This document shows, piece after piece, positions 10,745-38,736 of a stretch of 64,000 bases of DNA. A model generated the notes under the pieces. That model made no database searches. It saw only the letters and a list, made by a program, of their open reading frames with translations, and had not been told where the DNA came from. Position numbers and translations under genes: made by a program. Position 1 is the first letter of the stretch, and every line of letters starts with the position of its first letter. Location: positions 3,345-67,344 of the forward strand of contig JAGNGI010000004.1 of assembly GCA_018002295.1 (NCBI GenBank). The letters are read 5' to 3'. The DNA is from Fidelibacterota bacterium (GTDB lineage Bacteria; Fidelibacterota; UBA2242).

Positions 10745-10757
10745 ATAAAAAAATAAC

Positions 10758-11214: not shown

Positions 11215-11273
11215 TCCAATTTTTCGTAGATAAATAAATTCTTATCAATTAAATTACTGGCGTTTTTGACAAG

Positions 11274-11349: not shown

Positions 11350-11396
11350 CAAATTTCGATTGAATTAAATAAATTTTTCACGAAATTCAGAACGAA

Positions 11397-22257: not shown

Positions 22258-22629
22258 ATGCCAATAAAACCCAAAATATTAATCGTTGATGATGAAGCGG
22301 TAATTCGTGAAATCTACGGGGATTTCTTGGAACAGAATGGATTTGAAGTGACGACAGCTTTAAATGTCGAAACGGCTTTGGAGTCTATAAAGGCTAAAAA
22401 GCCGGATTTAATTCTATTAGATATTGTGATGCCTTTTCGTAATGGCTTTGATCTTTACGACCAAGTAATAGTTGATTACCCTGATATTAAATTTGTCTTT
22501 ATGACCGGTTATGATGATGATATAAAGATTACTGACCGTTTAAGCAAATCTGGGAAGAAATGGTTTGCTAAACCAATTAAATTAGAAGAAATGTTAGAAG
22601 TAATTCGGAATGAGTTATCAGCTTTTTAA
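22258..22629 (+). CDS. stand-alone response-regulator receiver domain (CheY-like)
   Basis: ILIVDDEAVIREIY…KPDLILLDIVMPFRNGFDL…FMTGY…AKP receiver motifs. No output domain. Confidence 0.7.
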   Translation: MPIKPKILIVDDEAVIREIYGDFLEQNGFEVTTALNVETALESIKAKKPDLILLDIVMPFRNGFDLYDQVIVDYPDIKFVFMTGYDDDIKITDRLSKSGKKWFAKPIKLEEMLEVIRNELSAF

Positions 22630-23393
22630 ACTGATAGATTCCGGCGGATATGTTTTTTAAAATATTTTATCTTTATCGGTAAACAGTGCTCGTTTACTAA
22701 TTTCTGCACGATTTTGTAGTTATCCATAGTCCGAACGATAACTGTAGCCTCGAAATGAGACGTTGTATTTTTATGGCATTCTACCAGAGAATTCAAGCGA
22801 TCCAGAAAAGATTCTTCCATAATTGATTGAGTGGTCTCAAAATTAAAACAACGCAATTTTTCGGGTTTTTCGATTATCATGTCCGGAATATAACCTTTCC
22901 AATAGGGCGGGTGAGGGCTATAATTATCCAGTAATTTGGAATAGACTTTGTAACCACGTTTTGAATATACTCTAAGTAAATATGAGAGCAAGTTAAATTG
23001 ATCGTGTTTAAAACGAGTGGGAAGAAGCGAACGTCGTAGTGAATTGAGAACTCGAGCATAGAGAACATTGAGATCAAAAGGCTTGGTAACATAATCGTCA
23101 GCACCAGAGACTAGTCCATCGACTTGAAATTCGGTAGATGCTTTTGCGGTTAACATAATCACCGGAATAAAAGCCGTGATTGGATGAGTCTTTAAAGTTT
23201 TCAAAATAGAGAGGCCGTCTATATCCGGTAAATTAATATCAAGAATAATTAAATCGGGTTCTTTACTGATAGCTAGATCAAGTACTTGTGCTCCTTCTGT
23301 AGTCGCGTAAACTTCAAATCCACGAGCTGAAAAATAGGATGTGATCAATTCTATAATGTTAGGATCATCATCAACTGCTAAAATTTTTTTCAT
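22626..23393 (-). CDS. response regulator: receiver domain plus ~135-aa uncharacterised C-terminal domain
   Basis: N-terminal half is a receiver (ILAVDDDPNIIELI…DLIILDINLPDIDG…VIMLTAKAS…GADDYVTKP). The C-terminal half fits no known output domain. Stop codon overlaps the stop of the convergent 22258..22629 gene. Confidence 0.65.
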   Translation of the reverse strand: MKKILAVDDDPNIIELITSYFSARGFEVYATTEGAQVLDLAISKEPDLIILDINLPDIDGLSILKTLKTHPITAFIPVIMLTAKASTEFQVDGLVSGADDYVTKPFDLNVLYARVLNSLRRSLLPTRFKHDQFNLLSYLLRVYSKRGYKVYSKLLDNYSPHPPYWKGYIPDMIIEKPEKLRCFNFETTQSIMEESFLDRLNSLVECHKNTTSHFEATVIVRTMDNYKIVQKLVNEHCLPIKIKYFKKHIRRNLSV

Positions 23394-23744: not shown

Positions 23745-23775
23745 AAGCCGCTTACAAGAGCGGCTTTTTTATTTT
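23745..23775 (+). terminator. intrinsic terminator (AAGCCGCT-tacaag-AGCGGCTT followed by a T-run)
   Basis: Perfect 8-bp GC-rich stem, 6-nt loop, then TTTTTTATTTT. No CDS lies upstream on this strand. Confidence 0.5.
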
Positions 23776-24276: not shown

Positions 24277-26124
24277 TTGAAAAACGCGACAGAAAATCAA
24301 GTCCCAAAAGGCAAATTTTCACTGGCAAGAGGATTGCTTGTCATCGGAATAGTAGCTGGGATTTGTTTGAGTGACAACCTCTCAGATAGAACATACTGGA
24401 CTTACGATGCTATCTGGTATCAAATATTCCCAGAGCGCTTTAGGAACGGTGATCCGACTAATGATCCAACGATTGAAACGCTAAAAGGCACCTGGCCATA
24501 TGAACCTCAAACGCAATGGAGCATTATGCCCTGGACTGCTGATTGGTATAAACTCCAGCCTTGGGAAAAATCCAACCAACGCGACTTTTACTATAATGCT
24601 CAATTGCGTCGTTATGGCGGTGATATCGAGGGAATAATTGATAAACTCGATTATCTTGTAGATTTAGGAATCAATGCAATTTATTTGAATCCAGTCTTTG
24701 AATCGGCTTCGTCGCATAAATACGGTGCTACAATGTATCATCATATTGATAATAATTTTGGGCCTGATCCGGCTGGTGATATAGCAATTTGGCAAACTGA
24801 AAATCCTAATGATCCTTTGACCTGGCAGTGGACTTCCGCTGATAAATTATTTCTGAAACTAATACAGGAGGTGCATACCCGTCAAATGAAAATAATCATT
24901 GATGGAGTATTCAATCATGTTGGCATACCTTTCTGGGCTTTTCAGGACGTCAAAAAAAATGGAGAAGCCAGTCCATACGCCGATTGGTTTGTGATAGAGT
25001 TCTTTGATGATCCGAGTACAATCGAAGATGAATTTGAATATCAAGGCTGGAATGGAATTCCGGATTTACCGGAGATCTGGGAAGACGAGAATGGTCCTGT
25101 ACAAGGATTTCGGGCGCATATAAAAGCCGTGGTTGAAAGATGGGGTGATCCAAATGGTGATGGCGATCCGTCGGACGGGATTGACGGCTGGCGATTGGAT
25201 GTGGCTGAGAAGGTCAGTAAAAATTTCTGGCGTGATTTTCGCAAATGGGTGAAAAGCATAAATCCCGAGGCATATTTAACTGGTGAAATATGGTGGGAAG
25301 ATTTTATGAATAATAAGATGTTCGATGCTTCACCATGGTTGCAGGGCGATATTTTTGACGGCGTGATGAATTATCGTTTCGGCGATGCTATGCTTAAAGC
25401 CTTTGTTGACAGAGAAATGAGGATAAAACCATCCGAGCTTGATCAATTATTAGGCGATATTAGAGAAAAATATCCGCTACCCGCTCAATATCAACTGCAA
25501 AATATAATTGGTAGTCACGATAATGAGCGTTTTGCCAGTATGTTATTAAATCCAGACCGCTGGATCGATCACGGTGGCAATCTGGTTTACAATAAAGATT
25601 TTAAGATAAACCGTCCTTCGGATGAGCTCCGACAAATCCAAAAGACAATTCTTGTTTTTCAATTTACTTATATCGGAGCACCTTATATTTATTATGGCGA
25701 TGAAGTGGGGATGTGGGGAGCAGATGATCCCGACAATCGAAAACCAATGGTTTGGGATGATATGCAATATGAACCGGAGACTACTCATCCATTTGGAATA
25801 AAGAGACCTGTAGATTCCGTTAAAGTTGATACAGATTTGTTCAATTTCTATAAATCTGTAATAAATCTCAGAAAAAATCATGAATGTCTAAGAAGAGGCA
25901 GGTATAAAACAATATTGACTGACGACAAAAGGGGGATTTTCGGATTTGAGCGTAAATATGATACTGAGACCATCTACATCTTTGCAAATTTGAATGATAA
26001 ACCTATCAAAATGAGCGAGATAAATTTTGATGTCACAAAATGCGAAAAGATTTTTACAGTTAATACCGATACAAATTATCTCGGGTCGAAAGGAATAGTA
26101 GTTTATAAAATTATTAAAGGGTAA
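24277..26124 (+). CDS. GH13 alpha-amylase-family enzyme (neopullulanase/cyclomaltodextrinase-like), exported
   Basis: GH13 regions I (IIDGVFNHVG), II (GWRLDVAEKV), III (GEIWWED) and IV (IGSHDNERF). N-terminal hydrophobic segment. TTG start. Confidence 0.8.
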   Translation: MKNATENQVPKGKFSLARGLLVIGIVAGICLSDNLSDRTYWTYDAIWYQIFPERFRNGDPTNDPTIETLKGTWPYEPQTQWSIMPWTADWYKLQPWEKSNQRDFYYNAQLRRYGGDIEGIIDKLDYLVDLGINAIYLNPVFESASSHKYGATMYHHIDNNFGPDPAGDIAIWQTENPNDPLTWQWTSADKLFLKLIQEVHTRQMKIIIDGVFNHVGIPFWAFQDVKKNGEASPYADWFVIEFFDDPSTIEDEFEYQGWNGIPDLPEIWEDENGPVQGFRAHIKAVVERWGDPNGDGDPSDGIDGWRLDVAEKVSKNFWRDFRKWVKSINPEAYLTGEIWWEDFMNNKMFDASPWLQGDIFDGVMNYRFGDAMLKAFVDREMRIKPSELDQLLGDIREKYPLPAQYQLQNIIGSHDNERFASMLLNPDRWIDHGGNLVYNKDFKINRPSDELRQIQKTILVFQFTYIGAPYIYYGDEVGMWGADDPDNRKPMVWDDMQYEPETTHPFGIKRPVDSVKVDTDLFNFYKSVINLRKNHECLRRGRYKTILTDDKRGIFGFERKYDTETIYIFANLNDKPIKMSEINFDVTKCEKIFTVNTDTNYLGSKGIVVYKIIKG

Positions 26125-26169: not shown

Positions 26170-28968
26170 ATGAGATATAAGGATTGGTTAATAACAGTTG
26201 TTCTGATTTTAACTGCAGGGTATTTATTCGGAGGTAATACTGGTAAAATTACTGGTATAGTTACTGATAGTCAAACTGGTCTTCCTTTAATAGGTTGTAA
26301 CATAATGCTTGAGGATACTTATTTGGGTGCGGCATCCGATACAGATGGACGATATATGATTCTTAATGTACCGCCCGGCGAATATCGTTTAAAAGCTCAA
26401 ATGATTGGTTACCAGCCAAAAGTGATAACCGGCGTGATTGTATCAGCTGATTTGACAACTACTATCAATATTGGGCTTTCGACCCAGGTTTTAGAGGGTG
26501 AAGAAGTGATAGTTACTGCAGAGCGCAAAATGGTTGTCAAAGATATGACTGCGACTGCTTCCCATGTTAAAGCTGAAGAACTAGCCGCTTTACCAGTGAC
26601 TGAAGTTAGCGACGTTCTTGAAATGCAAGCCGGATATGTAGATGGGAGTTTACGGGGAGGCAGAAGAGGTGAAGTTGCCTATTTAATAGATGGTATTCCG
26701 GTAACCGATTCTTATGATCGTAGTGCGGTCATTGATGTCAATAAAAATATGATTCAGGAATTGCAGGTAATTTCCGGAGCGTTTAATGCAGAATACGGAA
26801 AGGTAATGTCAGGCATCGTCAATATCACTACCAAGCAAGGTAGCAACAAGCACGGTGCGTCGCTAGAAATGTATATTGGAGATTATCTTAGTACACATGA
26901 CGAAATCTTTGATAATATTGGGTCAATAAATCCTCTAAATATCCATAATGCTGAAATCAGTTTTTTTGGACCATTAATAAAGGATAAGTTATTTTACAAT
27001 TTCAATACGCGCTATATTTACTTTGGGGGTTGGCTTCAAGGTCAGAACCGTTATAAACCAACTAGTATATTAGCTGTGTCTCCCGATGGTTCGCATTTCT
27101 TGCTGGACTCAACTACTATGTTAGGAGATCAGAAGTGGGTCAATATGAACTGGAACGAAAAGTTGTATTTTCAAGGACAATTAATCTACCGGCTTTCTAA
27201 CCGAAGTAGTATTTATTATAATCTTTTTTACGATAATAAAGATTACCAGGATTATGATCGTATGTTCAAATATAATCCGGCGGGAATGTTAAAGAAAAAC
27301 CTAACCGCTGAAACGCATTTACTGAAGTTTCAGCGACAATTAAGTTCTAAAACCTTTTTCACTCTGGCTGGCTCATATTATTATCGTAAATATACCGGCA
27401 GATTGTCTGCCGATACCAGTTACAACGATAGCACCACCTATGTCCACCCGGCTTACCTTTATCAATATCCTTATCAATTTTATTTTGGTGGGACTCAAAA
27501 TGATCACGAATATCGTGACAGTAGAACATACCTTGCGAAATGGGATATGACTTCCCAGATAAATGGACAACATCAGATAAAGGGCGGTTTGGAATTTCAA
27601 CAGCATGATATTTCATTAAGAACATTTAATATTCGTCCAGCGACTGGTGAGACCTATATAGACTTTGCATCCGGATTGAATATACCATCTACCTGGAATC
27701 CATATATTCATCCGACGATTTTGGATAATAGTACGATTTATGCTAGCTATTACCGTCATAAACCTTATGAATTTGCCGGATATTTACAAGATAAAATGGA
27801 GTTTAGCGAGTTAATCATTAATATCGGGGTAAGATTTGATTATTTTGAACCGGATGGTGTTGTGCTTGCCGATCCCAGTGACCCTGAAATCTATGAGCCA
27901 ATTAAACCTGAAAATCGTTATCATGATCTTAACGGAAATGGTGTTCAGGATCCTGGCGAACCAGAAGTCACTTTGGAGGAACGGAGACAGTATTGGTATA
28001 AAAAAGCCAGCCCAAAATATCAATTTAGCCCTAGAATCGGATTGTCATTTCCAATTAGTGATCGCGGGGTATTTCATTTTTCTTATGGTCATTTTTTTCA
28101 AATTCCCAACTTTAATTATTTATATATGAATCCTGATTTTGATCTTGGTTCTGGAACCGGTAATCAAGGAGTAATTGGAAATGCGGATTTGAAGCCAGAA
28201 CAAACTATCGTGGGAGAAATCGGAGTTCAGCAACAATTAAGTGATAATTTTTCAGTTGACATTACTGCCTATCTGAAAGACATAAGAGACTTGACCGGAA
28301 CGAGAGCAGAAGAGATTATAGTTTATGGCGGAGCGGCCTCTTATAGCCGATTAGTTAATAGTGATTTTGGTGTAGTAAAAGGTATTACTATAGCACTTAA
28401 TCAGCAGAATCCGAGCGGTTTATATACCAGTTTTGATTATACGCTCCAAATTGCTAAAGGCACTGCATCAGATCCGGAAGCATACCGTAATGCGATTGCT
28501 GGTGGAAACCAACCAGAAATTCAACTTAATCCCTTAGATTGGGATCAACGCCATACAATTAATGGAACAGTGGGATATAATCACAAAAATTATGGAATAA
28601 ATTTTATCGGTCGCTGGGGAAGTGGTTTGCCCTATACTCCGCAATCAAGTGAAGATATTACATCACTTTTAACTAATGCTGGTACTAAACCACCTACCCT
28701 AACAATTGATGCTAAATCTTACTACCGATTCACCTTATCAGGAAGATATTCGGTTGAATTATTTATCAGAATTCAGAATTTATTTGATAAATTGAATGAA
28801 GTTAATGTTTATGACGAGACCGGTCGAGCTGGTTTTACGACCGATGAAGCCCGAGTAGAAGCTTTAAATATTAAAACTCCGATTAATTCGGTTCACGAGT
28901 GGTTTACCGACCCAACGTATTATTCCGAACCACGTCGAGTCGAAATAGGAATGAGGATAAGTATATGA
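26170..28968 (+). CDS. TonB-dependent outer-membrane receptor with N-terminal carboxypeptidase-regulatory-like domain (SusC-like architecture)
   Basis: Signal peptide, CarbopepD_reg-like N-terminus (ITGIVTDSQTGLPLIGCNIML…GEYRLKAQMIGY), plug region (VTAERK…LAALPVTEVSDVLEMQAGY…LRGGRRGEVAYLIDGIPV) and a long barrel. No SusD-like gene follows. Confidence 0.65.
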   Translation: MRYKDWLITVVLILTAGYLFGGNTGKITGIVTDSQTGLPLIGCNIMLEDTYLGAASDTDGRYMILNVPPGEYRLKAQMIGYQPKVITGVIVSADLTTTINIGLSTQVLEGEEVIVTAERKMVVKDMTATASHVKAEELAALPVTEVSDVLEMQAGYVDGSLRGGRRGEVAYLIDGIPVTDSYDRSAVIDVNKNMIQELQVISGAFNAEYGKVMSGIVNITTKQGSNKHGASLEMYIGDYLSTHDEIFDNIGSINPLNIHNAEISFFGPLIKDKLFYNFNTRYIYFGGWLQGQNRYKPTSILAVSPDGSHFLLDSTTMLGDQKWVNMNWNEKLYFQGQLIYRLSNRSSIYYNLFYDNKDYQDYDRMFKYNPAGMLKKNLTAETHLLKFQRQLSSKTFFTLAGSYYYRKYTGRLSADTSYNDSTTYVHPAYLYQYPYQFYFGGTQNDHEYRDSRTYLAKWDMTSQINGQHQIKGGLEFQQHDISLRTFNIRPATGETYIDFASGLNIPSTWNPYIHPTILDNSTIYASYYRHKPYEFAGYLQDKMEFSELIINIGVRFDYFEPDGVVLADPSDPEIYEPIKPENRYHDLNGNGVQDPGEPEVTLEERRQYWYKKASPKYQFSPRIGLSFPISDRGVFHFSYGHFFQIPNFNYLYMNPDFDLGSGTGNQGVIGNADLKPEQTIVGEIGVQQQLSDNFSVDITAYLKDIRDLTGTRAEEIIVYGGAASYSRLVNSDFGVVKGITIALNQQNPSGLYTSFDYTLQIAKGTASDPEAYRNAIAGGNQPEIQLNPLDWDQRHTINGTVGYNHKNYGINFIGRWGSGLPYTPQSSEDITSLLTNAGTKPPTLTIDAKSYYRFTLSGRYSVELFIRIQNLFDKLNEVNVYDETGRAGFTTDEARVEALNIKTPINSVHEWFTDPTYYSEPRRVEIGMRISI

Positions 28969-31900
28969 AACATTCGATAAAATATCTTACTATTGAGATT
29001 CTCTCAATTTTGTTAATGACGATTACAACGTCACAAATAATTTTAGCTAATCAAAGTGGGAAAGCTTACCGGCGTAGTTCCATCCATAACGGTAATCTGG
29101 TTCGGACAGTTTTCGGTAACTGGGGAGTCATTGGCCAACCAAGGGAAAAAGGTCCGCGTGGGGCATGGCTTTTTGATACCAATGGATATATCGGCGATGT
29201 CAGTCCAATGGTAGGCGCTGAAGTAAATTATCATTCTGAAGAACTTGACTCGACAATAACATTCCATAGCGTTGTAGTTTGTCCGGTAGATCGCCCGGCA
29301 ACTGCTCGCGAAGAATCGCCTACCGGTGATCAGTGGACTTTTGAGCCGGTTTCCGGTTATTTTAATGAGTCTTCTCAAGGAATAGCTATGAGTACTGATC
29401 AAAATTCGTGGCCTCCTTATTGGCCTGATAAAATGGATGATCCTGAGGATCCGGGTTGGCCAGAGCAATGGAATGGATTTTTTGGAAAAGGGGTAACCAA
29501 TGCTGATCAAGAAAGTTATTTTATTATGGATGATAATAATGATGTTGAATTCAACAGTGGTCACAATCTAAAGGGTGTCTATTTCAAACCTGATAATAGA
29601 GATGCGAATCGCAACGGACTCGGCTTGGAAGTGAAGGTTCGGGGAATGCAATGGGCTCAGTTTCTGGCACAGGATGTAATATTTTGGCTTTATGAAATTA
29701 CCAATACAAGCACTACGGATTATGATAAAGTGGTCTTCGGAATGATAGCTGGAACTTACAACGGAGTGACTGGTACAGATGATTCACCTCAGGAATATGA
29801 TGACGATTATTCTTTCTTTGATGTTGAACGGGATTTGACTTATACTGGTGATTACCCTAATAATAATAGTCGTAATCCTAAATGGCAGGGACCGGTTGGA
29901 CTGGTCGGATATGCTTTTCTGGAAAGTCCCGGTAATCCTTATGACGGCATTGATAATGACGGTGATAATAAACCTGAAGAACATCCTGGTAAAAATTTAA
30001 TTTTTACGGCACCCCTATTTACCGAATCAGATTTCGACTCAGTTGTATATAATAAAGGAGACCAGATAGTATTAATTGATAAAGATTATAAGCGTACTTT
30101 TCACACAATTACCAGTGATACAGAAACGGTTGTAACCAAAGGGATGCAAATCACAATCATTGCGGGACAAACAAAATTAGTAGAAGGAAATGTCCTGGCA
30201 AATGGTTCAATTAATCCAAATGTTTATGACGGCATTGATAATGATCTGGACGGATTAATTGACGAGAATTACCTGTTGCATTATAGACAACGCCGGGTGG
30301 ATCAAAACGGAGTAGTTTTATTTGACACCTTGAATCCGGTAGCCTATAAAGATTATCGAAGGGGATTGGGAATTGGTGATCCTTTGATTGACGAAGCCCG
30401 CAATGATGGACTTGATAATGACGGTGATTGGAATCCTGAAACAGATGATGTCGGTAATGATGGTAAACCAGGTACAAATGATTATGGAGAGAATGACGGC
30501 AAACCTACAGCAAATGAACCGAATTTCGATAAAACCGATGTTGATGAATCGGACCAAATCGGTTTAACTAGTTTTAATTATTTCGTTCCATCTAATGCTT
30601 ATCCAATGGCGGATGATGAATTGCTCTGGGAATGGTTAAAACCGGGATATTTTGATGTGCCGTCGAGTATTCAAAATGGCAAACCAGTTGCCGGGGAAGA
30701 TGGCGATTTCATTTATGGCTCGGGGTATTTTCCACTACGAGCCGGTGATACCCAGCGTTTTTCATTGGCTTTAGTATATGGTTATGATTTGACCGATCTA
30801 CTCAAGAATCGGGAAACGGTTCAGGATATTTACAACAGTGATTATCGTTTTCCCCAACCGCCGGATAAGCCGACGGTAACGGCGGTTGCCGGTGACGGCA
30901 AGGTAACCCTTTACTGGGATAGAAAGGCTGAAGAAAGTATCGATCCAGTAACTAAGGAGAAAGATTTCGAAGGTTATAAAATCTATAAAGCTACTGATCC
31001 TGATTTCAATGATGTATTTGTTATTACCGATGCCAATGGTGTGCTGACTGGTTACAAGCCACTAGCTCAATTTGATAAGGTCAATGGAATCAAAGGAATT
31101 TTCGAGGCGAGTTCGGATTTGTATCAAAGTGCTGGCGGTTATTCTTACTATTTAGGCTCTGACAATGGTTTAGTGCATTCCTACGTTGATGAAGATGTTC
31201 AGAACGGACGAATCTACTATTATGCGGTAGTCGCCTATGATCACGGTGACGCCAGTAATGATATTTTTCCATCGGAAAATACCAAGTTTATTTCGGTGCA
31301 GTCAGATGGGACGGTAATTACCGATATAAACACCGTTCAAGTTAGACCAACTGCGAAAGTTGCCGGTTATGATGAACAAAATAGTGAATTAGCCCTGAAA
31401 CACCTGGAAGGTCCGGCAACCGGCGTTATTCAGTATAAAATTATTGATGAAACACTATTAAATGGGCATACCTATAAAGTGAATTTCACCGATACACGAA
31501 CCGACGGAATTGATAATGATGGCGATTGGAATTATTTAACTTGCGATGTTGGCTCTGATGGCAAACCAGGTACAAATGATTATGGAGAAGGGGATGGCAT
31601 ACCTACGAGCGGTGAGCCGAATTTTGAATGGAATGATGAAGATGAATTTGCTCAAATTACATCCACTTACTCTGTTTTAGATAAAACAGGCGTCGAAGAA
31701 TTTATCAATCTTGACACTTCTTATGTTTGGCTTACCTATCAAAATATTCAATATGACGATATTTTAATTGCCAGTGAGTCAGATCCGAATAACTATTTAT
31801 CATTAAGTAAATTCGAAATAGATACCTTACGAGGAAAAATTAAAATAAAAGCGGGTAGTAACCTAAAAAGTGGTAGTTATCGTATATTTTATAAGTATTA

Positions 31901-32876
31901 TCCTGTCTTTAAAAGTCCAAACATTCAGTATAGTCCTTATATGAAAGAAACAAAAGACTCCGATATTTTCGATGGCGTTGAGTTAGTGTTTAGTAATCCG
32001 TGGGATATTAAAATGATTAAATCTAAGTCGGGCTGGAATTCGACTGATAGAATTATTGATTTTACCTTTAGAATTGATCAGGCTTTATTGGAAGGCGATA
32101 CCATAGTTGGAGTACAATATCCCGGAATATATGAGCTGCGAGTCGGTGATAGTAGCGAAGTATTATATGAAACTCCCAAAGAATTCTTAAAGTCCATCTA
32201 TCCTAGTTTCTCAGATGTAATTATAAGAACCCTGGTAAAGAAGACTAATTTTTATCTATTTAATGTGTTGGATTCTGTAAAGATACCTTTTCTTTATAAT
32301 GGTGGAATAAAAAACAGTTATGGAATTTATGAAATAACGCCAGGTGGCTTGATTGAATCTTATATTCCTAAACCGGATAGTACTTATCAATATTCCTGGG
32401 TGATAAACTTTCCGCCTATTTCAGATAAAGTCACACCGCCCCGGTTCCTAAAAGGTGACATTCTCCATATTGAAACAGAAATCCCCTTCCGTAATGGTGA
32501 TATTTATGAATTCACTACTGAAATTCCTAATGTAGATGATGAAGTGGCTAAATCTAGCTTAGATGATATTCAGGTTGTCCCTAATCCTTATGTGGTTGCC
32601 AATACGATGGAATCGCCATTACCGCCTGCCATTACCAGTGGCCGAGGGGAAAGGCGGATTGAATTTCGCAAATTGCCTAACGATGCCAAAGTACATATCT
32701 TTACATCAGCCGGGGCGCATGTAATTACCCTAAATCACAACGGCAATATTCATAATGGTACTTTAGCCTGGAATGTTAAATCGAAAGAGAATCTCGATGT
32801 AGCATTTGGGGTTTATTACTATATCATAGAATCATCGGTCGGTAAAAAATCCGGCAAATTAGCAGTAATAAAATAG
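28965..32876 (+). CDS. 1303-aa secreted protein with thrombospondin-type-3-like Ca-binding Asp repeats and T9SS C-terminal sorting domain
   Basis: ATG overlaps the receptor stop (ATGA). Signal peptide present. Repeats DGIDNDGDNKPEEHPG, DGIDNDLDGLIDEN and DNDGDWN…VGNDGKPGTNDYGENDGKPT occur twice. Fn3-like module. C-terminus VVPNPYV…KVHIFTSAGAHVITL…GVYYYII…KSGKLAVIK fits a T9SS type-A CTD. Confidence 0.6.
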   Translation: MKHSIKYLTIEILSILLMTITTSQIILANQSGKAYRRSSIHNGNLVRTVFGNWGVIGQPREKGPRGAWLFDTNGYIGDVSPMVGAEVNYHSEELDSTITFHSVVVCPVDRPATAREESPTGDQWTFEPVSGYFNESSQGIAMSTDQNSWPPYWPDKMDDPEDPGWPEQWNGFFGKGVTNADQESYFIMDDNNDVEFNSGHNLKGVYFKPDNRDANRNGLGLEVKVRGMQWAQFLAQDVIFWLYEITNTSTTDYDKVVFGMIAGTYNGVTGTDDSPQEYDDDYSFFDVERDLTYTGDYPNNNSRNPKWQGPVGLVGYAFLESPGNPYDGIDNDGDNKPEEHPGKNLIFTAPLFTESDFDSVVYNKGDQIVLIDKDYKRTFHTITSDTETVVTKGMQITIIAGQTKLVEGNVLANGSINPNVYDGIDNDLDGLIDENYLLHYRQRRVDQNGVVLFDTLNPVAYKDYRRGLGIGDPLIDEARNDGLDNDGDWNPETDDVGNDGKPGTNDYGENDGKPTANEPNFDKTDVDESDQIGLTSFNYFVPSNAYPMADDELLWEWLKPGYFDVPSSIQNGKPVAGEDGDFIYGSGYFPLRAGDTQRFSLALVYGYDLTDLLKNRETVQDIYNSDYRFPQPPDKPTVTAVAGDGKVTLYWDRKAEESIDPVTKEKDFEGYKIYKATDPDFNDVFVITDANGVLTGYKPLAQFDKVNGIKGIFEASSDLYQSAGGYSYYLGSDNGLVHSYVDEDVQNGRIYYYAVVAYDHGDASNDIFPSENTKFISVQSDGTVITDINTVQVRPTAKVAGYDEQNSELALKHLEGPATGVIQYKIIDETLLNGHTYKVNFTDTRTDGIDNDGDWNYLTCDVGSDGKPGTNDYGEGDGIPTSGEPNFEWNDEDEFAQITSTYSVLDKTGVEEFINLDTSYVWLTYQNIQYDDILIASESDPNNYLSLSKFEIDTLRGKIKIKAGSNLKSGSYRIFYKYYPVFKSPNIQYSPYMKETKDSDIFDGVELVFSNPWDIKMIKSKSGWNSTDRIIDFTFRIDQALLEGDTIVGVQYPGIYELRVGDSSEVLYETPKEFLKSIYPSFSDVIIRTLVKKTNFYLFNVLDSVKIPFLYNGGIKNSYGIYEITPGGLIESYIPKPDSTYQYSWVINFPPISDKVTPPRFLKGDILHIETEIPFRNGDIYEFTTEIPNVDDEVAKSSLDDIQVVPNPYVVANTMESPLPPAITSGRGERRIEFRKLPNDAKVHIFTSAGAHVITLNHNGNIHNGTLAWNVKSKENLDVAFGVYYYIIESSVGKKSGKLAVIK

Positions 32877-32886
32877 CGGTGAGAAC

Positions 32887-33900
32887 ATGAATAGAAAATT
32901 ACCTACTATAATTTCGACAGTACTGATTAGCACTATATTTTTAAATGCTCAGAATAAAGAAGGAACTGCCGCCGGTCAATTTTTGCAAATTCCAGTCGGT
33001 GGGAAGGCAATTGCAATGGGTGGCGCATTCACGGCTCTGGCCGATGATGCGAGTGCAATTTATTATAATCCGGGAGCAATTTCCCGAATTAGTAAAAATA
33101 AATTGTATGTTTCTCAAACTAATTGGTTAGTGGGAGGGAAGCATCAATTTATAGCGGCTCAGGTAATGGCAACCAGCAATGATATCATTGGAATTGGCGT
33201 TGATTACTTAGATTACGGTGAGCGAGAAAAAATAACTACGGTAGCGGAGCCAGATGGTACCGGTGAATATTGGGAAGCAAGTGATTTAGCTTTTAGCTTG
33301 GGCTATGCTCGCAACTTAACCGACCGCTTTTCAATCGGAGGCAGTGTCAAATTCATTCAACAAAATATCTGGCATGTCAGCGCAACGGGATTTGCCGCTG
33401 ATCTGGGATTATTATTTAAAACTCAATTCAACGGACTTCAGATTGGTGCCAGCATGCGGAATTTTGGTAGCGAGTTACAATTAACAGGACGCGATTTAAT
33501 TACTCAGGTTGACCTTGACGAAGAAGCCTCTGGCAATAACGAGACAATCGTCGCTTATCTTAAAACTGATAAATGGCCAATTCCTTTAACGTTTACTATA
33601 GGAGTCGCGATGCCGGTGATCAATAGTAATCAATTTGTTTTGACACTGGCAGGTGATGTCGTACGTCCTACGGATAATAGCCAGACGCTTAACTGTGGGG
33701 CTGAGGCAATAATAATGAAAATGATTAGTCTTCGTGCCGGTTATCAAGCTTTATTTCGCGAAAATAAACAGCAAGGATTGACCGCTGGTATTGGCTTGAA
33801 ATTGCCAATCCAATATGCCGATTTTTATTTTGATTATTCTTATCAAGAATTTGGATTTTTTGGGAATCTTTCAACTATGTCTATATCAATAGGTTTTTAA
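32887..33900 (+). CDS. PorV/PorQ-like (UPF0164-type) outer-membrane beta-barrel protein
   Basis: Signal peptide, then FLQIPVGGKAIAMGGAFTALADDASAIYYNPGAI, an N-terminal signature I recall for PorV/PorQ-family barrels. Alternating-residue beta-strand character; ends in F. Confidence 0.45.
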   Translation: MNRKLPTIISTVLISTIFLNAQNKEGTAAGQFLQIPVGGKAIAMGGAFTALADDASAIYYNPGAISRISKNKLYVSQTNWLVGGKHQFIAAQVMATSNDIIGIGVDYLDYGEREKITTVAEPDGTGEYWEASDLAFSLGYARNLTDRFSIGGSVKFIQQNIWHVSATGFAADLGLLFKTQFNGLQIGASMRNFGSELQLTGRDLITQVDLDEEASGNNETIVAYLKTDKWPIPLTFTIGVAMPVINSNQFVLTLAGDVVRPTDNSQTLNCGAEAIIMKMISLRAGYQALFRENKQQGLTAGIGLKLPIQYADFYFDYSYQEFGFFGNLSTMSISIGF

Positions 33901-33922: not shown

Positions 33923-35974
33923 ATGAAAAAAGCTACTGTTTTGATGTTGATGTTGACTCTAATTGCTGTCTCGGGATTAGCCGATGTGACAGTTAATTAT
34001 ATTGTCAATACATCAACTCTGCAAGGGGTCACCGATTCGACCCATCAGGTCCAGATTTGTGGTGCGGAAGTCGGGCCAGAAGGTGTTGAAAAGTGGTACA
34101 ACCTTTTTCTGACCTGGGGTGATGAATCACCACTAGCCGCCAATATTGGAGGAGATTACTGGAAATTGACGATTGCTTATCCGGATTCGATGATTGGCTG
34201 GCGGATGGCTTATAAGGTTCGTTATAAGGCTAATGAGGATGATGCCTTTACGTGGGAGAATGTAACTGGTGGTGGCAACCGTATGTGGGTTTTACCGGCT
34301 ACTGACACGACTTTAGCGGTTGCTTATGTTAACAATGATTTCAATCCGCCCTTTGCGCCATCCGATTCTGTTGACATTTTAGTTCGGGTAAATATGGAGA
34401 ATTACGAAGACAGTTTCTCACTATTGTCGGTTGTTGGCCATTGGCCTTTCTGTGATCCAGCCTGGACACCTGGGGCACTGCCTTTGACTCAAGAAGGCAC
34501 CTCCGATTACTGGAGCAGAACGATCCGGATTCCACAGGCTGTGATGGATACCGTTGATCGAGTACAACCTCTCGGTGCAGAGCATCCCGGGGTACTAATG
34601 TATCGTTTTGCGATCGGTAATGATTGGAACAATTCAGAAAACTTGAATGGTAAATACTGGCCAGGTAATGAAAACCGGATCATTGCTCTGCATCCTGGCT
34701 TGGAAGATACGACCTTGGCTTGGAAATATTGGAATGACAATCCACCGGCCGGATTTATAGCGGAAGATACCGTTGATATTACTTTTACCGCCGATTTAAC
34801 TAATGCCATTGCCAATAAAGGTTTTGCAGTTGGCGATACCATTTTAGTCCGGATGGGTTATTTTAACAGTCTGTCTTCAACAATGGATGCTAATCTGCTT
34901 CGAATTTCCGGAACCTACCTATATTCGACCACTTTTACAGATGTTCCAGTAGTTCTTAACGAACCGCTTTATTATCAGTATTATCTTGTAAAAGATGCCG
35001 TAGAACAACGTGAAGTATATTTCAATTTTGATTATGAAGGCGAAGACGTTACGCGAGCAGAAAGACGTGCATACGTCATAACCGGCGATGCTGAAATCAA
35101 CGACATCGAGGATAGCGAAACCGATCCACGTCGCATGCCCAAATTCAGGAATAACCAGAAACTTAGTCAGGCGGTTACCGTAACTATTGAATGCGACCTG
35201 CGTCCGGCCTATTATCAAGTCTGGGCTGGTTCGACGCTTGACGATATTCAAGGCAACATTGACATTACCCCAGCGATGCTGGAAGCCAATCCAGATACTC
35301 TCGCTAAATTAGGTTTATGTATCAATGGCCCAATGTCCAACAATGGCGAAGGTACCTGGGCAACTTGGGGTGGAACGTTAGCCAGTGACGCTACTCGCAG
35401 AATGTATGACGATGGAACTAATGGTGACGAGACTGCTGGTGATACCATTTATACGATTGTATACAATTTTACCACTGAAAAAACCATCGGTCAGGAATTC
35501 AAATTCGGGATTGGCGGCGGAGATAATGAAAGCAGTTATGGTCTTAACCATATAGAAAATATTGATGACACGAATCCGACTTTTACACTGGAGGTTCAGT
35601 TTGGCTCGATCAATCCGAATTTCTATTCGGCTTGGGATTTTAATGCCAGAGCACCTAAGGTCGGAATCAAAAATCAAAATGCCACTATTGCCAAGGAATT
35701 CTCCCTCTCTCAGAATTTTCCAAATCCATTCAATCCAACTACAGAAATTCGTTTTACTATCTCGGAAAAAAGCGATGTTCATTTGACGATATACAACCTG
35801 CTTGGTAAGGTTGTCAATAAGGTTACTTATAATAACCTGGACATCGGCAATTACAGCTACGTCTGGAATAGTAAAGACCTAAACGGCAACAGTGTTGCCT
35901 CCGGTATTTATTTCTATGAACTACGGGCTGGTAGTAAATATCATGCTATCAAAAAGATGGTTTTGATGAAATAA
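33923..35974 (+). CDS. secreted protein with four tandem CBM20-like starch-binding-type modules and T9SS C-terminal sorting domain
   Basis: Signal peptide. Four ~110-aa repeats each ending in a CBM20-like W…WE…NR pattern (e.g. FTWENVTGGGNRMWVLP). C-terminus NFPNPFNPTTEIRFTI…LTIYNLLGKVV…SGIYFYELRAG…KKMVLMK is a T9SS type-A CTD. Confidence 0.55.
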   Translation: MKKATVLMLMLTLIAVSGLADVTVNYIVNTSTLQGVTDSTHQVQICGAEVGPEGVEKWYNLFLTWGDESPLAANIGGDYWKLTIAYPDSMIGWRMAYKVRYKANEDDAFTWENVTGGGNRMWVLPATDTTLAVAYVNNDFNPPFAPSDSVDILVRVNMENYEDSFSLLSVVGHWPFCDPAWTPGALPLTQEGTSDYWSRTIRIPQAVMDTVDRVQPLGAEHPGVLMYRFAIGNDWNNSENLNGKYWPGNENRIIALHPGLEDTTLAWKYWNDNPPAGFIAEDTVDITFTADLTNAIANKGFAVGDTILVRMGYFNSLSSTMDANLLRISGTYLYSTTFTDVPVVLNEPLYYQYYLVKDAVEQREVYFNFDYEGEDVTRAERRAYVITGDAEINDIEDSETDPRRMPKFRNNQKLSQAVTVTIECDLRPAYYQVWAGSTLDDIQGNIDITPAMLEANPDTLAKLGLCINGPMSNNGEGTWATWGGTLASDATRRMYDDGTNGDETAGDTIYTIVYNFTTEKTIGQEFKFGIGGGDNESSYGLNHIENIDDTNPTFTLEVQFGSINPNFYSAWDFNARAPKVGIKNQNATIAKEFSLSQNFPNPFNPTTEIRFTISEKSDVHLTIYNLLGKVVNKVTYNNLDIGNYSYVWNSKDLNGNSVASGIYFYELRAGSKYHAIKKMVLMK

Positions 35975-35983: not shown

Positions 35984-36024
35984 AAGAGGAAGGACGGATT
36001 TTCCGTCCTTCCTCTTTTTCTTTG
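35984..36024 (+). terminator. strong intrinsic terminator
   Basis: AAGAGGAAGGACGG-atttt-CCGTCCTTCCTCTT, a perfect 14-bp stem, followed by TTTTCTTT. Sits right after the 33923..35974 gene. Confidence 0.75.
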
Positions 36025-36048: not shown

Positions 36049-37881
36049 ATGCATATAGTAGATTATTTTATTATCTGTATTTATCTGATAGGAATCCTCA
36101 TAGTGGGTTTATGGTTCCAGCGTAAAGCCTCTGAGGGTATTAATTCATATTTTCTGGGTAATCGGTCATTGCCTTGGTGGGCTTTAGGAGCATCCGGCAT
36201 GGCATCCAATCTTGATATAAGCGGAACTATGATTATTGTTGCCCTGGTCTATGCCTTAGGAGCCCGAGGTTTATATATCGAATTTCGGGGGGGTGTTACC
36301 TTGATTATGGCATTTTTAATGATTTTTATGGGTAAATGGAACCGGCGTTCAAAAGTGATGACTTTAGCGGAATGGATGGAATTCCGTTTTGGGAAAGGTA
36401 CAGAGGGGCGCTTAGCGCGGATGATTACGGCTTTGACCTCGATTCTGGTCACGATTGCGATGGTAACTTATTTTGCTGTGGGTGGAGGAAAATTTTTAGA
36501 CAAATTTTTAGGTATTCCAAATTTTTTGGGTTTATCGTCGCAATTTTGGGCGGCGGCGGTTCTGATCGCCATTGCGATGATTTATACGGTTGCTTCCGGA
36601 TTATATGGAGTGGTGTGGACAGATGTATTTCAAGGTTCACTGATATTTTTAATGATTTTATACGTAGTTATCCAGGTGTTTCATTTTGATATACCGTCGG
36701 AATTTTCTGTAGTTATGCCTTTGAAGGATGCTGCAGGAGGTGGATTCCAGTTTTTCCCCACAACTTATCAGGAGTGGACCGACGTTCTCCCCAAATTCAA
36801 ATTATCGATCGATTCCAGCAGTGTCTATAGTATGTACAATTTATTCGGAATCGCTGTACTGTTTTATTTGCTTAAGGTAGTTATCGAGGGTTGTGGAGGG
36901 ACCGGCAACTATATGATTCAACGTTACTACGCCGCTAAAGATGATCGTGAAGCTGGATTACTCTCGTTATTCTGGACATTTTTATTATCATTCCGCTGGC
37001 TTTTTGTGGGAGCTATGGCAGTCTGGGGGATATATCTCGGAACTCAAATTACCGATCCCGAGATGGTTTTACCCATTGTGGTCCAAACTGTACCAATTGG
37101 AATAAAAGGATTTCTGGTGGCTGGTATGATGGCGGCGGCAATGTCAACTTTCGACTCGACTGTTAATGCTGGTGCGGCTTATTGGGTCAAAGATATTTAT
37201 CTTGAATATATAAATAAAAATGCTTCTGATCATCAGCAGATACGACAAAGCTATGGAGCCTCGATAATTATTGTAGTTCTTGGACTGGTTCTAATGCTTA
37301 TTATTAAGAATATTAATGAAATTTGGGGCTGGATTACTATGAGTATAGGAGCCGGCTTGATTGTGCCCCAATTACTGCGCTGGTATTGGTGGCGACTAAA
37401 TGGTTATGGTTATACTATCGGTATGGCTGCCGGAATGCTAGCTTCGATCATCTGGAAAATTATCGCCCCTGAAGCAACCGCCGAATACTGGTCATTTCTA
37501 TTTGCCGCCGGAATTAGTACCGTCGCTACGGTTATCGGCACCCTTTTAACCGAACCAACTGACGAGAAAGTATTGGATAATTTCTACCGAGTTACCCGTC
37601 CATTTGGTTTTTGGGGACCAATCCGAGCTAAATTACCCGAAAAACTGATATCTCAAATCAATCGTGAAAATCGACGCGATATAATCTCAATTTTCTTCGC
37701 CGTGCCTTGGCAGGTGTGCCTGTTTTTGATGTGGATGGTTCTAGTGATGAAACGCTATGATACTTTCCTTAGCTTATTACTGATTGTAGTAACACTATCA
37801 ACAATATTATACTTTACCTGGTTTCGTCATCTTGCGACAGAGGTAAACATCGAATCCGATGCCGATTCATCTTCGGGGTAA
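36049..37881 (+). CDS. sodium:solute symporter family (SSF) transporter
   Basis: 610 aa, ~14 TM segments, SSF-type glycine-rich helices. Located between the glycan-binding and regulator genes. Confidence 0.7.
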   Translation: MHIVDYFIICIYLIGILIVGLWFQRKASEGINSYFLGNRSLPWWALGASGMASNLDISGTMIIVALVYALGARGLYIEFRGGVTLIMAFLMIFMGKWNRRSKVMTLAEWMEFRFGKGTEGRLARMITALTSILVTIAMVTYFAVGGGKFLDKFLGIPNFLGLSSQFWAAAVLIAIAMIYTVASGLYGVVWTDVFQGSLIFLMILYVVIQVFHFDIPSEFSVVMPLKDAAGGGFQFFPTTYQEWTDVLPKFKLSIDSSSVYSMYNLFGIAVLFYLLKVVIEGCGGTGNYMIQRYYAAKDDREAGLLSLFWTFLLSFRWLFVGAMAVWGIYLGTQITDPEMVLPIVVQTVPIGIKGFLVAGMMAAAMSTFDSTVNAGAAYWVKDIYLEYINKNASDHQQIRQSYGASIIIVVLGLVLMLIIKNINEIWGWITMSIGAGLIVPQLLRWYWWRLNGYGYTIGMAAGMLASIIWKIIAPEATAEYWSFLFAAGISTVATVIGTLLTEPTDEKVLDNFYRVTRPFGFWGPIRAKLPEKLISQINRENRRDIISIFFAVPWQVCLFLMWMVLVMKRYDTFLSLLLIVVTLSTILYFTWFRHLATEVNIESDADSSSG

Positions 37882-37902: not shown

Positions 37903-38736
37903 ATGGATATTTTTCAGGATAATGTTCTTCATAAAATGATGCAACTGGGCTTTACTAATTATGAAGCCCGCACTTACCTCGGACTACTGAAATTGAGTCC
38001 TGCTACCGGTTATGAAATCAGTCAATTGGCTCACGTTCCTCGTTCCGTAGTTTACTCGGTATTAAAGCAGTTAGAATCGCGAGGTATCGTAATTTCGATT
38101 CATGATAAACCGCGCCGATATATCCCTTTGGCACCGGACGAGATGCTGAAGCGGATGGAGACCGATTATGCCAGTCGAGTATCGAACCTTAAAGACGATT
38201 TAGCCGAACTCAGTAATAAATCAGGCACCGAGGGATTCTGGAACTTACGTGGATACCAATCTTTAATGCAAACCTGTGAGACGTTAATCCGCGAAGCTCA
38301 TAAATCTATCTACATTTCCGGCTGGCAACGTGAGATTTCGCTCCTTAGAGAGCACTTACTAAATGCCTGTAAACGCAATGTTTTTGTCGTAATTTTTTCC
38401 TTTAATGAAATTAATCCGCCAATCGGAGAAACCTTGGCTTATGGCATTCCAGAAGAAAAACTGGAACATTATTGGGATCGGAAATTAATTTTGGTAACCG
38501 ATTCGAAAAATTTAATTATGGGACCAGCTAATCAGAAAGAAGATGAGCAAGCCATCTGGACTCAGAATAAAGCGGCACTAACAATTGCTACCAATTATAT
38601 TATTCTGGATATAACCCTTTTCGGTCAGCGAATGAATATGGATATTTCTAACATTATTGCTGGTATGTTGACTGACGAATTTGAAAAAGTTGATGATCTC
38701 ATTCAAGAAGCCATTGAAAAACACAAAAAGGCTTAA
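37903..38736 (+). CDS. TrmB-family sugar-responsive transcriptional regulator
   Basis: N-terminal HTH LGFTNYEARTYLGLLKLSPATGYEISQLAHVPRSVVYSVLKQLESRGIV matches the TrmB DNA-binding domain. The C-terminal domain is the length of a TrmB sugar-binding domain. Confidence 0.7.
   Translation: MDIFQDNVLHKMMQLGFTNYEARTYLGLLKLSPATGYEISQLAHVPRSVVYSVLKQLESRGIVISIHDKPRRYIPLAPDEMLKRMETDYASRVSNLKDDLAELSNKSGTEGFWNLRGYQSLMQTCETLIREAHKSIYISGWQREISLLREHLLNACKRNVFVVIFSFNEINPPIGETLAYGIPEEKLEHYWDRKLILVTDSKNLIMGPANQKEDEQAIWTQNKAALTIATNYIILDITLFGQRMNMDISNIIAGMLTDEFEKVDDLIQEAIEKHKKA

Follow-up and report, generated by a model that had tools for sequence, protein, structure and literature searches.

A 64,000-nucleotide stretch of the genome of a Fidelibacterota bacterium (contig JAGNGI010000004.1, positions 3,345 to 67,344; the whole stretch is the window) encodes a TonB-dependent receptor and, directly behind it, a protein of 1303 aa. 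This arrangement raises the question of what occupies the SusD-like position in an FCB-group bacterium without SusD. The answer that we favour, with confidence about evenly balanced, is that the 1303-aa protein is a non-lipoprotein surface subunit of alpha-glucan (starch or glycogen) uptake that is exported by the T9SS.

Gene order of the locus

The ORF, 28965–32876 on the + strand, codes for 1303 aa followed by a stop. Its ATG at 28965 shares bases with the receptor stop TGA (28966–28968) to form ATGA, an overlap already pointed out by the sequence-only reading. Terminator-like hairpins flank the unit, one before the first GH13 gene and one directly 3′ of the fourth gene of the module described below. 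The features of the locus are:

23745..23766, + strand: terminator-like hairpin upstream of the operon (9-bp stem, 5 GC pairs, then a T run)
24277..26124, + strand: GH13 alpha-amylase-family enzyme, likely operon gene 1 (Pfam Alpha-amylase, 187.9 bits)
26170..28968, + strand: TonB-dependent receptor, 932 aa (Pfam CarbopepD_reg_2, Plug, TonB_dep_Rec_b-barrel)
28965..32876, + strand: the 1303-aa protein, whole ORF including the stop (ORF reading; full-length homologs)
32887..33900, + strand: PorV/PorQ-family outer-membrane barrel, proposed cognate anchor or shuttle (NF033709, 188.5 bits, cutoff 90)
33923..35974, + strand: type-A-CTD surface protein, 683 aa (Por_Secre_tail, 34.9 bits)
35984..36016, + strand: strong terminator-like hairpin, likely operon end (15-bp stem, 8 GC pairs, then a T run)
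36049..37881, + strand: sodium:solute symporter, probable inner-membrane sugar importer (Pfam SSF, 127.7 bits)
37903..38736, + strand: TrmB-family sugar-responsive regulator (Pfam TrmB, Regulator_TrmB)
38760..40580, + strand: GH13 enzyme with a signal peptide (Pfam Alpha-amylase, 137.9 bits)
40573..43506, + strand: GH13 surface amylase in a SusG-like role, bearing a type A T9SS CTD (Pfam Alpha-amylase, Por_Secre_tail)

The first GH13 enzyme is cyclomaltodextrinase- or maltodextrin glucosidase-like by NCBIfam and has a hydrophobic N-terminus; the start of the last was set at Met49 of the listed ORF 40429–43506, and a signal-peptide-like sequence follows Met49. Together with the symporter, which has orthologs in related loci, and the TrmB regulator, the three GH13 genes provide an alpha-glucan context. 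The 683-aa protein is called CBM20-type here: Pfam CBM_20 matched 9 of its 18 orthologs (best E 5.4e-10) and did not match the window copy. The receptor consists of a carboxypeptidase-regulatory-like N-terminal domain, a plug and a barrel. It matches the SusC/RagA model TIGR04056 at the N-terminus only (71.8 bits, cutoff 368), a PDB sequence search returned no SusC chain, and judged by its sequence it is not a SusC/RagA member.

The full-length homologs of the 1303-aa protein form over 2400 clusters, every one of them named ‘hypothetical’, and Pfam, NCBIfam and PDB sequence searches gave no match for this family. The N-terminal domain alone as query retrieved 833 clusters at 50% identity, and none of the best 240 homologs comes from a cultured host. 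Across 155 related long-form loci, the gene adjoins the receptor (111/112) and a PorV/PorQ-family barrel (118/118), with the CBM20-type protein downstream in 73 of 75. These four genes form a strict module, present in Marinimicrobia, KSB1, Ignavibacteriota, Calditrichia and MAGs labelled Gemmatimonadota or Acidobacteriota. Measured in 77 loci, 28 of which show an overlap, the gap to the receptor has a median of 3 nt, so the tight coupling first suggested from the window holds for the family; the gap to the barrel has a median of 17 nt. A GH13, GH77 or debranching enzyme is found in other loci too, and in 22 of 53 the flank includes a GH13 catalytic domain. Since, in several phyla that lack the classic SusD lipoprotein, it always sits between a sugar receptor and its own PorQ-like barrel, the protein is probably a surface part of a starch-uptake system that relies on the T9SS for its assembly.

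The same synteny brings close to refutation the alternative, highly improbable in our estimate, that the protein is a T9SS adhesin or surface-layer protein of a generic kind, linked to the receptor only incidentally. Its size, its richness in beta structure and in Asp, and its Fn3-like module are shared with many adhesins, and its short paralogs have mixed T9SS cargo as neighbours, but adjacency of this consistency, at near-zero spacing and in several phyla, cannot be incidental.

Architecture of the protein

AlphaFold models (pLDDT 87.5 and 90.5) show an all-beta protein that includes an Fn3-like module, a variable beta body and a CTD closest to PorZ and PorU. The following features were delineated:

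28965..29048, + strand: Sec signal peptide, aa 1-28, non-lipoprotein (MKHSIKYLTIEILSILLMTITTSQIILA/NQSG)
29049..29936, + strand: N-terminal beta-supersandwich part A, aa 29-324, boundaries approximate
29937..30545, + strand: long-form-specific insert, aa 325-527, missing from short type-A-CTD paralogs
30405..30533, + strand: Asp-rich cassette 1, aa 481-523, presumed Ca-binding loop (from the motif)
30546..30869, + strand: N-terminal supersandwich part B, aa 528-635 (top conservation, 77%)
30870..31244, + strand: Fn3-like module, aa 636-760, boundaries approximate (AF2 predicts a unit of seven strands)
31245..32564, + strand: variable beta-sandwich body, aa 761-1200
31503..31631, + strand: Asp-rich cassette 2, aa 847-889, copy of cassette 1
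32565..32873, + strand: divergent T9SS CTD with a conserved insertion, aa 1201-1303

The signal peptide reads as SPI type; its ...AQ/SG cleavage site is conserved across the family, and 110 of 115 members lack a lipobox. With this Sec signal and a CTD fold, the protein has the features of the T9SS-type cargo that it had been proposed to be, and would be secreted by that route. For the Fn3-like module (69% conserved), the support comes from the predicted fold, with its seven strands and with FnIII pairs among its weak Foldseek hits (maximum probability 0.98, at E ~6e-3); Pfam fn3 did not match.

As with SusD/RagB, the gene lies directly downstream of a TonB-dependent transporter in a glycan-utilisation operon, and the window, with its starch-type locus, surface GH13 and separate starch-binding protein, mirrors the susC-susD-susE/F-susG order. 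As opposed to SusD, an alpha-helical TPR protein of roughly 550 aa with a lipoprotein signal, the 1303-aa protein is predicted to be all-beta, is delivered by a Sec/SPI signal and probably a T9SS CTD, and has a partner receptor outside SusC/RagA. A SusD relative was ruled out by the all-beta fold and the lack of a SusD HMM match and of a lipobox.

The C-terminal domain and its barrel

The CTD passes neither the curated type A nor the curated type B thresholds. It matches Pfam CHU_C (type B) at 23.6 bits, under the cutoff of 27, and the C-terminus of the NCBIfam PorZ model at E 2.9e-5, where the score of 22.7 compares with a threshold of 260 and the alignment covers only model positions 688-753 of 757. 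An insertion at aa ~1207-1229, PLPPAITSGRGER, follows the first strand VVPNPYVV, so the internal insertion that had been described earlier is real; several lines speak for the T9SS CTD itself. Although of low pLDDT, the insertion is 78% conserved, and the CTD 67%, as opposed to 35% for the body, a pattern that fits a protein-binding interface.

By HMM and by fold, the nearest relatives of this CTD are PorZ and PorU, and the neighbouring barrel is of the PorV/PorQ family, scoring best against PorQ (130, below the equivalog threshold of 220; PorV 55.7, below 250). In the PorZ-PorQ and PorU-PorV pairs, the CTD is retained and bound to the barrel (PMC10202324). The likeness points to non-covalent anchoring of the 1303-aa protein, whose CTD, by analogy with these pairs, may likewise be retained on the outer membrane. 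Where short paralogs carry a bona fide type A CTD, the receptor and the PorV-like neighbour are both missing, and this correlation between CTD kind and barrel presence counts for anchoring. Similarly, type B cargo genes (SprB-SprF, PG1035-PorP) are clustered with a dedicated barrel for secretion and anchorage, and their CTD is probably uncleaved (PMC9143113, PMC12618676, PMC10202324). The present pair shares with them a large surface protein, a dedicated barrel gene and the CHU_C match, yet that match is sub-threshold, the barrel is not PorP/SprF, and the known examples are gliding adhesins rather than receptor partners.

A very unlikely reading of the same resemblance is that the protein and its barrel form a local PorZ/PorQ-like attachment or sorting module, whose task would be to place or process, close to the receptor, the type-A-CTD cargo of the same locus (the surface amylase and the CBM20-type protein). 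The affinities of CTD and barrel would suit such a module, as would the type-A cargo genes that follow in nearly all loci. The body, however, is unrelated to PorZ and PorU, without PorZ's two beta-propellers or a PorU-like peptidase domain, and the pair sits in a sugar-uptake operon, strictly paired with the receptor gene and not with T9SS core genes.

The supersandwich head

The best fold matches of the N-terminal domain all come from glycoside hydrolases or phosphorylases, namely the N-domains of GH15 glucoamylase, glucodextranase, dextran dextrinase and GH94/GH65 phosphorylases, at 6-11% identity. It differs from them by an insert of roughly 200 aa with three Asp-rich motifs and by the lack of an (alpha/alpha)6 catalytic domain. 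Short type-A-CTD paralogs align over aa 28-324 and then aa 528-627, skipping the insert. Part B contains the invariant ESDQIGLTSF and GEDGDFIYGSGYFPL, and the head as a whole is 50-55% conserved across phyla, with numerous invariant Asp, Glu, His, Arg and Trp residues. Such conservation is above that usual for surface glycan-binding proteins, and the head could instead be an enzyme or a machine part.

An enzyme, a new carbohydrate-active one with its active site in the supersandwich head or the body and acting on alpha-glucan before uptake, is quite unlikely in our judgement. The invariant residues, the strong conservation and the origin of the fold matches are what it would predict, and mutarotases show that the galactose-mutarotase fold is able to support catalysis. 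Against it, the matches fall on N-domains that have no catalytic role in their (alpha/alpha)6-barrel enzymes, and the all-beta model has no such barrel; three GH13 enzymes are already encoded in the locus; and the earlier remark that no catalytic motif is recognisable agrees with Pfam, NCBIfam and PDB sequence searches, profile search included, in which no enzyme family matched.

A proposed model for alpha-glucan uptake

In the surface-subunit reading that we favour, the CTD, uncleaved as in PorZ and PorU, would use its fold and its conserved insertion to bind the dedicated PorQ-like barrel of the next gene, and so hold the protein at the outer membrane next to the receptor with which it is co-translated. 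The variable beta-sandwich body would be a stalk. The head of supersandwich and Fn3-like module, stiffened by Asp-rich, probably Ca-binding, loops, would engage alpha-glucan chains or oligosaccharides that the T9SS-anchored GH13 amylase frees and the CBM20-type protein holds, and would hand them to the receptor.

SusE/SusF, BtuG and TbpB are also surface accessory proteins of TonB-dependent transporters, lipoproteins that use lipoprotein surface-export or Slam pathways. The 1303-aa protein resembles them in being beta-rich, encoded beside such a transporter and a putative substrate-capture protein, but their folds are unlike its own, and the CBM20-type fourth gene is the better candidate for a SusE/F-like role. 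That gene encodes the more obvious starch binder, so the 1303-aa protein need not bind starch, which weakens the case that it must be the glycan-capture component. In addition, lectin activity is not established for the supersandwich N-domains of GH15, GH65 and GH94. Short head-domain paralogs lie mostly amid unrelated T9SS cargo, with one of seven in a GH13/GH31 locus, and the head is therefore not demonstrably alpha-glucan-specific.

The separate CBM20-type binder lends some weight to an alternative that we still hold to be unlikely, a structural gate or lid that caps or organises the receptor (and barrel) without itself recognising glycan, leaving the substrate to the surface amylase and the CBM20-type protein. 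Direct, translationally coupled placement after the receptor would favour a lid, as would very high conservation in both the head and the long-form insert, the latter missing in paralogs unlinked to a receptor. On the other hand, contact with the receptor is putative, and a protein more than twice the size of SusD, anchored C-terminally through a long variable body, would make a lid of odd geometry; to our knowledge, TonB-dependent sugar transporters outside Bacteroidota function without lids.

Asp-rich motifs

The long-form insert contains DGIDNDGD, a hairpin subdomain, DGIDNDLDGLIDEN and cassette 1, and its motifs are near-invariant. DGIDNDGD occurs at aa 327 and aa 847 and DGIDNDLDGLIDEN at aa 422, and the cassettes at aa 484-521 and aa 850-887 are identical at 30 of 38 residues, bearing out the duplication and motif copies reported from the sequence. 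The label ‘thrombospondin-type-3-like’ given to them describes a motif resemblance only, as Pfam TSP_3 had no match even at E<=10. The protein has four DG[ILV]DND motifs, where composition-preserving shuffles give a mean of 0.0012 and only 24 of 20000 contain at least one. Motifs 1-3 are retained in 109-115 of 116 family members and motif 4 in only 37. Cassette 1, a coil in the AF2 model, aligns without gaps at a mean identity of 72% across 115 homologs, and its motif suggests that it may bind Ca. Cassette 2 is shrunk to a 13-aa stub in many orthologs; in the window, the two copies share an exact 26-nt run (31563-31588 and 30465-30490).

Gene context

The 1,303-residue protein analysed here, hereafter the target (amino acid numbers are its own), is encoded between a TonB-dependent receptor and an outer-membrane barrel of the PorV/PorQ family, in a part of the window with the following features:

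23745-23766, terminator-like hairpin
26170-28968, TonB-dependent receptor, 932 aa
28965-32876, + strand, target ORF, 1303 aa
32887-33900, PorV/PorQ-family barrel, 10 nt 3′ of the target (NF033709, 188.5 bits against a cutoff of 90)
33923-35974, fourth gene, 683 aa, otherwise unannotated, with a type A T9SS C-terminal domain (CTD) and a 'choice-of-anchor X' match
35984-36016, strong terminator-like hairpin

As the sequence-only reading had noticed, the target's ATG sits inside an ATGA that also holds the TGA of the receptor ORF. Given the hairpins at 23745-23766 and 35984-36016, a GH13 gene, the receptor, the target, the barrel and the fourth gene likely form one five-gene transcription unit. 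Beside this upstream GH13, the locus has a sodium:solute symporter, a regulator of the TrmB type and two more GH13 genes, the last of which (the third GH13) encodes a type A CTD. The third GH13 ORF is listed with a TTG start and overlaps the second by about 150 nt (40429-40580); a start at Met49 (nt 40573), where a signal-peptide-like sequence begins, is more likely.

Pfam divides the receptor into a carboxypeptidase-regulatory-like N-terminal domain, a plug and a barrel. It is not a member of the SusC/RagA family, as model TIGR04056 gives 71.8 bits against a cutoff of 368 and covers the N-terminal 200 residues only, and its sequence relatives in the PDB are YncD and PqqU only, matched across the plug. 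For the fourth gene, the Pfam model CBM20 (PF00686) is found in 9 of 18 orthologs, with a best E of 5.4e-10; the window's own copy has no CBM20 match at E ≤ 0.1, and a profile weakly matches the starch-binding domain of glucoamylase (E 0.21). The product, hereafter the CBM20-type protein, is probably a starch binder similar to SusE/F.

Predicted fold of the target

Two AlphaFold2 models, both built from a 116-sequence alignment, cover aa 29-1228 (pLDDT 87.5, pTM 0.76) and aa 760-1303 (pLDDT 90.5, pTM 0.85), and predict an almost entirely beta fold. The N-terminal domain (aa 29-324 and 528-635) is predicted to be a galactose-mutarotase-like supersandwich of the GH15/GH65/GH94 type. This domain bears on the second by weight of four alternative explanations, that the target is a new surface enzyme: the (α/α)6 catalytic barrel of GH15/GH65/GH94 is absent, the models containing short helices only, and no glycoside hydrolase family in Pfam or NCBIfam matches the target. 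For the Fn3-like module proposed earlier, the models contain a seven-strand unit that Foldseek weakly matches to pairs of FnIII domains (probability up to 0.98, E ~6e-3); Pfam fn3 does not match it. Together, the supersandwich and this module are referred to as the head, and aa 761-1200 as the body. Foldseek against the PDB returns nothing for the target at E ≤ 1e-3, and the body is unmatched in Pfam, NCBIfam and PDB sequence searches, whether by single sequence or by the 116-sequence profile. A search within the window found no second copy of the target.

Family size and conserved gene order

Among 5.8 billion protein clusters, more than 2,400 full-length homologs were found, 1,230-1,325 aa in length and 52-99% identical to the query, and a search started from an Ignavibacteriales ortholog agreed with this. 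Wherever a homolog has a name, it is 'hypothetical protein', and precomputed Pfam domains are almost entirely absent. Relatives are encoded in at least 596 GTDB species genomes, the closest among the matches listed being a Candidatus Neomarinimicrobiota MAG (92%, locus L004), which makes Marinimicrobia the most likely source of the window. Hosts include Marinimicrobia/Fidelibacterota, KSB1, Ignavibacteriota, Calditrichia, Cloacimonetes, MAGs labelled Bacteroidota or Acidobacteriota, and one complete genome labelled Gemmatimonadota. The N-terminal 612 residues alone retrieve 833 clusters at 50% identity, of which 290 reach E ≤ 1e-30.

The window's proteins were run by tblastn across all fetched loci, 155 of which carry a long-form, target-like protein. 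The receptor adjoins the target in 111 of the 112 long-form loci with enough upstream sequence, separated by a median of 3 nt and overlapping in 28 of 77. The single locus without it (L094) matches the head only and may hold a short-form paralog. On the other side, a PorV/PorQ-like barrel adjoins the target in every long-form locus scored (118/118; median gap 17 nt), the CBM20-type protein, recognised by its body, comes downstream in 73 of 75, and a GH13 catalytic domain falls inside the flank in 22 of 53. Annotated examples among Gemmatimonadota-labelled and KSB1 loci have the same gene order, and their surroundings include LacI, GH13, GH77, a debranching enzyme and a symporter. This synteny nearly excludes the last-ranked of the four alternatives, in which the target is a generic adhesin.

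One metagenome contig, Ga0265292_1000001 (L093), carries tandem long-form copies (30-3644 and 8001-11798) with identical CTD HMM scores. After the upstream copy comes a LacI regulator and not a PorV-like barrel, so two cargo proteins may share one barrel.

Short paralogs

Seven loci (L084-L090) encode shorter relatives of 930-1,100 aa, which keep the supersandwich core (target aa 28-324 and 528-627), have no counterpart of the aa 325-527 insert and end in bona fide type A CTDs. None of the seven has an adjoining receptor or PorV-like gene. The divergent CTD of the target, the aa 325-527 insert, the receptor and the barrel thus travel together, since the short paralogs lack all of them. GH13 or GH31 neighbours occur in only one of the seven loci, the others containing mixed T9SS cargo or housekeeping genes, so the head is not demonstrably specific for alpha-glucans, and the idea that it is always tied to alpha-glucan genes is unsupported. 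The paralog of L087 sits among three GH31 genes and one GH13.

A PorZ-like C-terminal domain with a conserved insertion

The target ends in a predicted Ig-like β-sandwich of the CTD type that falls between the established models. The type A model TIGR04183 gives 12.2 bits (E 0.14) against a cutoff of 23, the other type A model, PF18962, is not reported in Pfam searches of the whole protein and its fragments, and the type B model PF13585 (CHU_C) gives 20.2-23.6 bits against a cutoff of 27; two orthologs (P0106 and P0119) have a precomputed PF13585 match. The top NCBIfam match of the domain is to the last 66 positions of the PorZ model (E 2.9e-5), and it recurs in an ortholog just 46% identical, together with a weak match to the PorU C-terminus. 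An orthologous relationship to PorZ can be ruled out, as PorZ has two β-propellers before its CTD and the models contain none; the PorZ equivalog NF052228 gives 22.7 bits against a cutoff of 260, over model positions 688-753 only. The barrel also scores below the equivalog cutoffs, with PorQ best (130.4 against 220) and PorV lower (55.7 against 250), and the barrel of the L093 ortholog shows the same pattern. These PorZ and PorQ matches are the ground on which a local PorZ/PorQ-like sorting module, third by weight among the alternatives, is to be judged. From the remaining type-A-CTD proteins of the window one can conclude that the organism has a T9SS in use, and no more.

An insertion in the CTD, also pointed out beforehand, was confirmed: PLPPAITSGRGER follows the first strand, VVPNPYVV. 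It spans window positions 32583-32651 (aa ~1207-1229) and is predicted to be disordered, with pLDDT below 50 in places. Despite this low pLDDT, aa 1201-1229 is the most conserved stretch measured in the target, at 78% compared with 67% for the rest of the CTD and 35% for the preceding body. Conservation combined with predicted disorder is the mark of a peptide that becomes folded when it meets its partner. In P. gingivalis, the CTDs of PorZ and PorU are kept, fixing these proteins on PorQ and PorV, and cognate PorV-like barrels have been proposed to shield such CTDs against cleavage (PMC10202324). PorP/SprF-like barrels, encoded alongside, likewise anchor type B cargo (PMC9143113, PMC12618676).

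Asp-rich cassettes and signal peptide

The target is rich in Asp (9.9%) and contains only 2 Cys. The two Asp-rich cassettes described from the sequence are present at aa 484-521 and 850-887, identical at 30 of 38 positions; DGIDNDGD occurs at aa 327 and 847, and DGIDNDLDGLIDEN at aa 422. DG[ILV]DND motifs number 4 in the target, against a mean of 0.0012 per same-composition shuffle. The cassettes share exactly a 26-nt run, AAACCAGGTACAAATGATTATGGAGA (window 30465-30490 and 31563-31588), and cassette 2 is reduced to a 13-aa stub in many orthologs, which together suggest intragenic gene conversion or lineage-specific re-copying of cassette 1. Their description as thrombospondin-type-3-like is not supported: TSP_3 (PF02412) is unmatched at E ≤ 10 on the fragments that contain them, and the DxDxDG-like motif is all they have in common. 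Both cassettes are coil in the AlphaFold2 models, as metal-binding loops would be, and we infer calcium binding from the motif alone.

The N-terminus is a predicted Sec signal peptide. N-terminal Gln after cleavage follows the 'Q-rule' of many Bacteroidota signal-peptidase-I substrates. Across the family (alignment A1), the mature N-termini show a conserved ...A-Q|SG site that leaves such a Gln, the window copy reading ILA|NQSG. The window copy has no Cys in its signal peptide and no lipobox, and a lipobox is absent from 110 of 115 homologs, the family keeping AQ|SG. A Cys near the N-terminus is present in 32 homologs, and it lies within the hydrophobic core, upstream of the conserved AQ|SG site, so that a lipoprotein can be ruled out.

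A possible functional counterpart of SusD

The order of the module mirrors that of susC, susD, susE/F and susG: the receptor corresponds to SusC, the CBM20-type protein to SusE/F and the CTD-bearing GH13 to SusG, with the target in the position of SusD. The earlier suggestion that the target replaces SusD stands as far as position goes, the gene being directly 3′ of the receptor (ATGA overlap; 111/112 loci), but the target has no SusD match, fold or lipobox. SusD_RagB and SusD-like Pfam models match neither the whole target (E ≤ 0.01) nor its fragments (E ≤ 10), the alpha-helical TPR fold of SusD is not seen, and by no tested criterion is the target a SusD relative.

We propose, with moderate confidence, that the target is a surface subunit exported by the T9SS, whose uncleaved PorZ-like CTD would pin it onto its own PorQ-like barrel beside the receptor. 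The conserved head would take part in handing over the substrate, the variable body would form a stalk and the Asp-rich loops would be calcium braces. This architecture fits the conservation pattern, in which head and anchor are conserved and the stalk varies. The most heavily weighted of the four alternatives is that the target is a lid or organiser that does not itself bind.

A bolder reading, which we regard as possible though rather unlikely, is that the family functionally replaces SusD in FCB lineages outside the classical Bacteroidia. The target would then be a calcium-stiffened all-beta lid, kept on that dedicated barrel by its uncleaved CTD. Joined by the receptor and by a CBM20-type protein and an amylase that are both attached through type A CTDs, it would form a lipoprotein-free outer-membrane 'utilisome'.

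Relation to known glycan uptake systems

What is known of TonB-dependent glycan uptake comes almost wholly from the SusCD lipoprotein model of Bacteroidota. Oceans, sediments and soils are rich in Marinimicrobia, KSB1, Ignavibacteriota, Calditrichota and related bacteria, whose polysaccharide uptake has, to our knowledge, been inferred from enzyme lists only. If the proposed model is right, these bacteria assemble a Sus-like machine from type IX-secreted parts, not lipoproteins. Extra PorV/PorQ paralogs would gain a defined role, and the module would provide a genomic marker of alpha-glucan uptake loci beyond Bacteroidia. Under the bolder, SusD-replacement reading, glycan capture at TonB-dependent transporters would have been solved a second time, independently.

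Taken singly, the parts of the module belong to known kinds, namely a partner of a transporter and a CTD cargo that has its cognate barrel. The novelty appears to lie in combining them, and in equipping a TonB-dependent sugar transporter by way of the T9SS in place of lipoprotein export. Pfam, NCBIfam and the PDB hold no relative of the target family, no source gives it an informative name, and within the library searched no paper describes the family or a module of receptor, CTD protein and PorQ-like barrel. Caldithrix abyssi grows on starch (PMC5317091). The module goes unmentioned in the Caldithrix genome paper, and no Melioribacter protein is among the 120 best matches of the Ignavibacteriales query. 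The Melioribacter roseus genome paper labels Mros0761-0759 'SusC, SusD, SusE' within a starch operon (PMC3534657). A protein family this large, with neither a Pfam or NCBIfam model nor a solved relative, is worth a structure.

Other genes in the window

Just past the alpha-glucan locus, which is 45-55% identical across phyla, lie an IS200-like Y1 transposase ORF (43982-44632, + strand) and an rve-type integrase ORF (45472-46269, − strand), possible traces of mobility. They are followed by a 988-aa protein (46721-49687) with CotH kinase, lamin-tail and chitobiase C-terminal-like domains and a type A T9SS CTD, and by a second, small sugar cluster (49862-54559) of an aldose 1-epimerase, a sodium:solute symporter and an FGGY-family sugar kinase. 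At 22626-23393 on the reverse strand, a response-regulator receiver is fused to a weakly matching AHJR-like restriction-endonuclease-fold domain, and a stand-alone receiver gene (22258-22629) adjoins this fusion gene.
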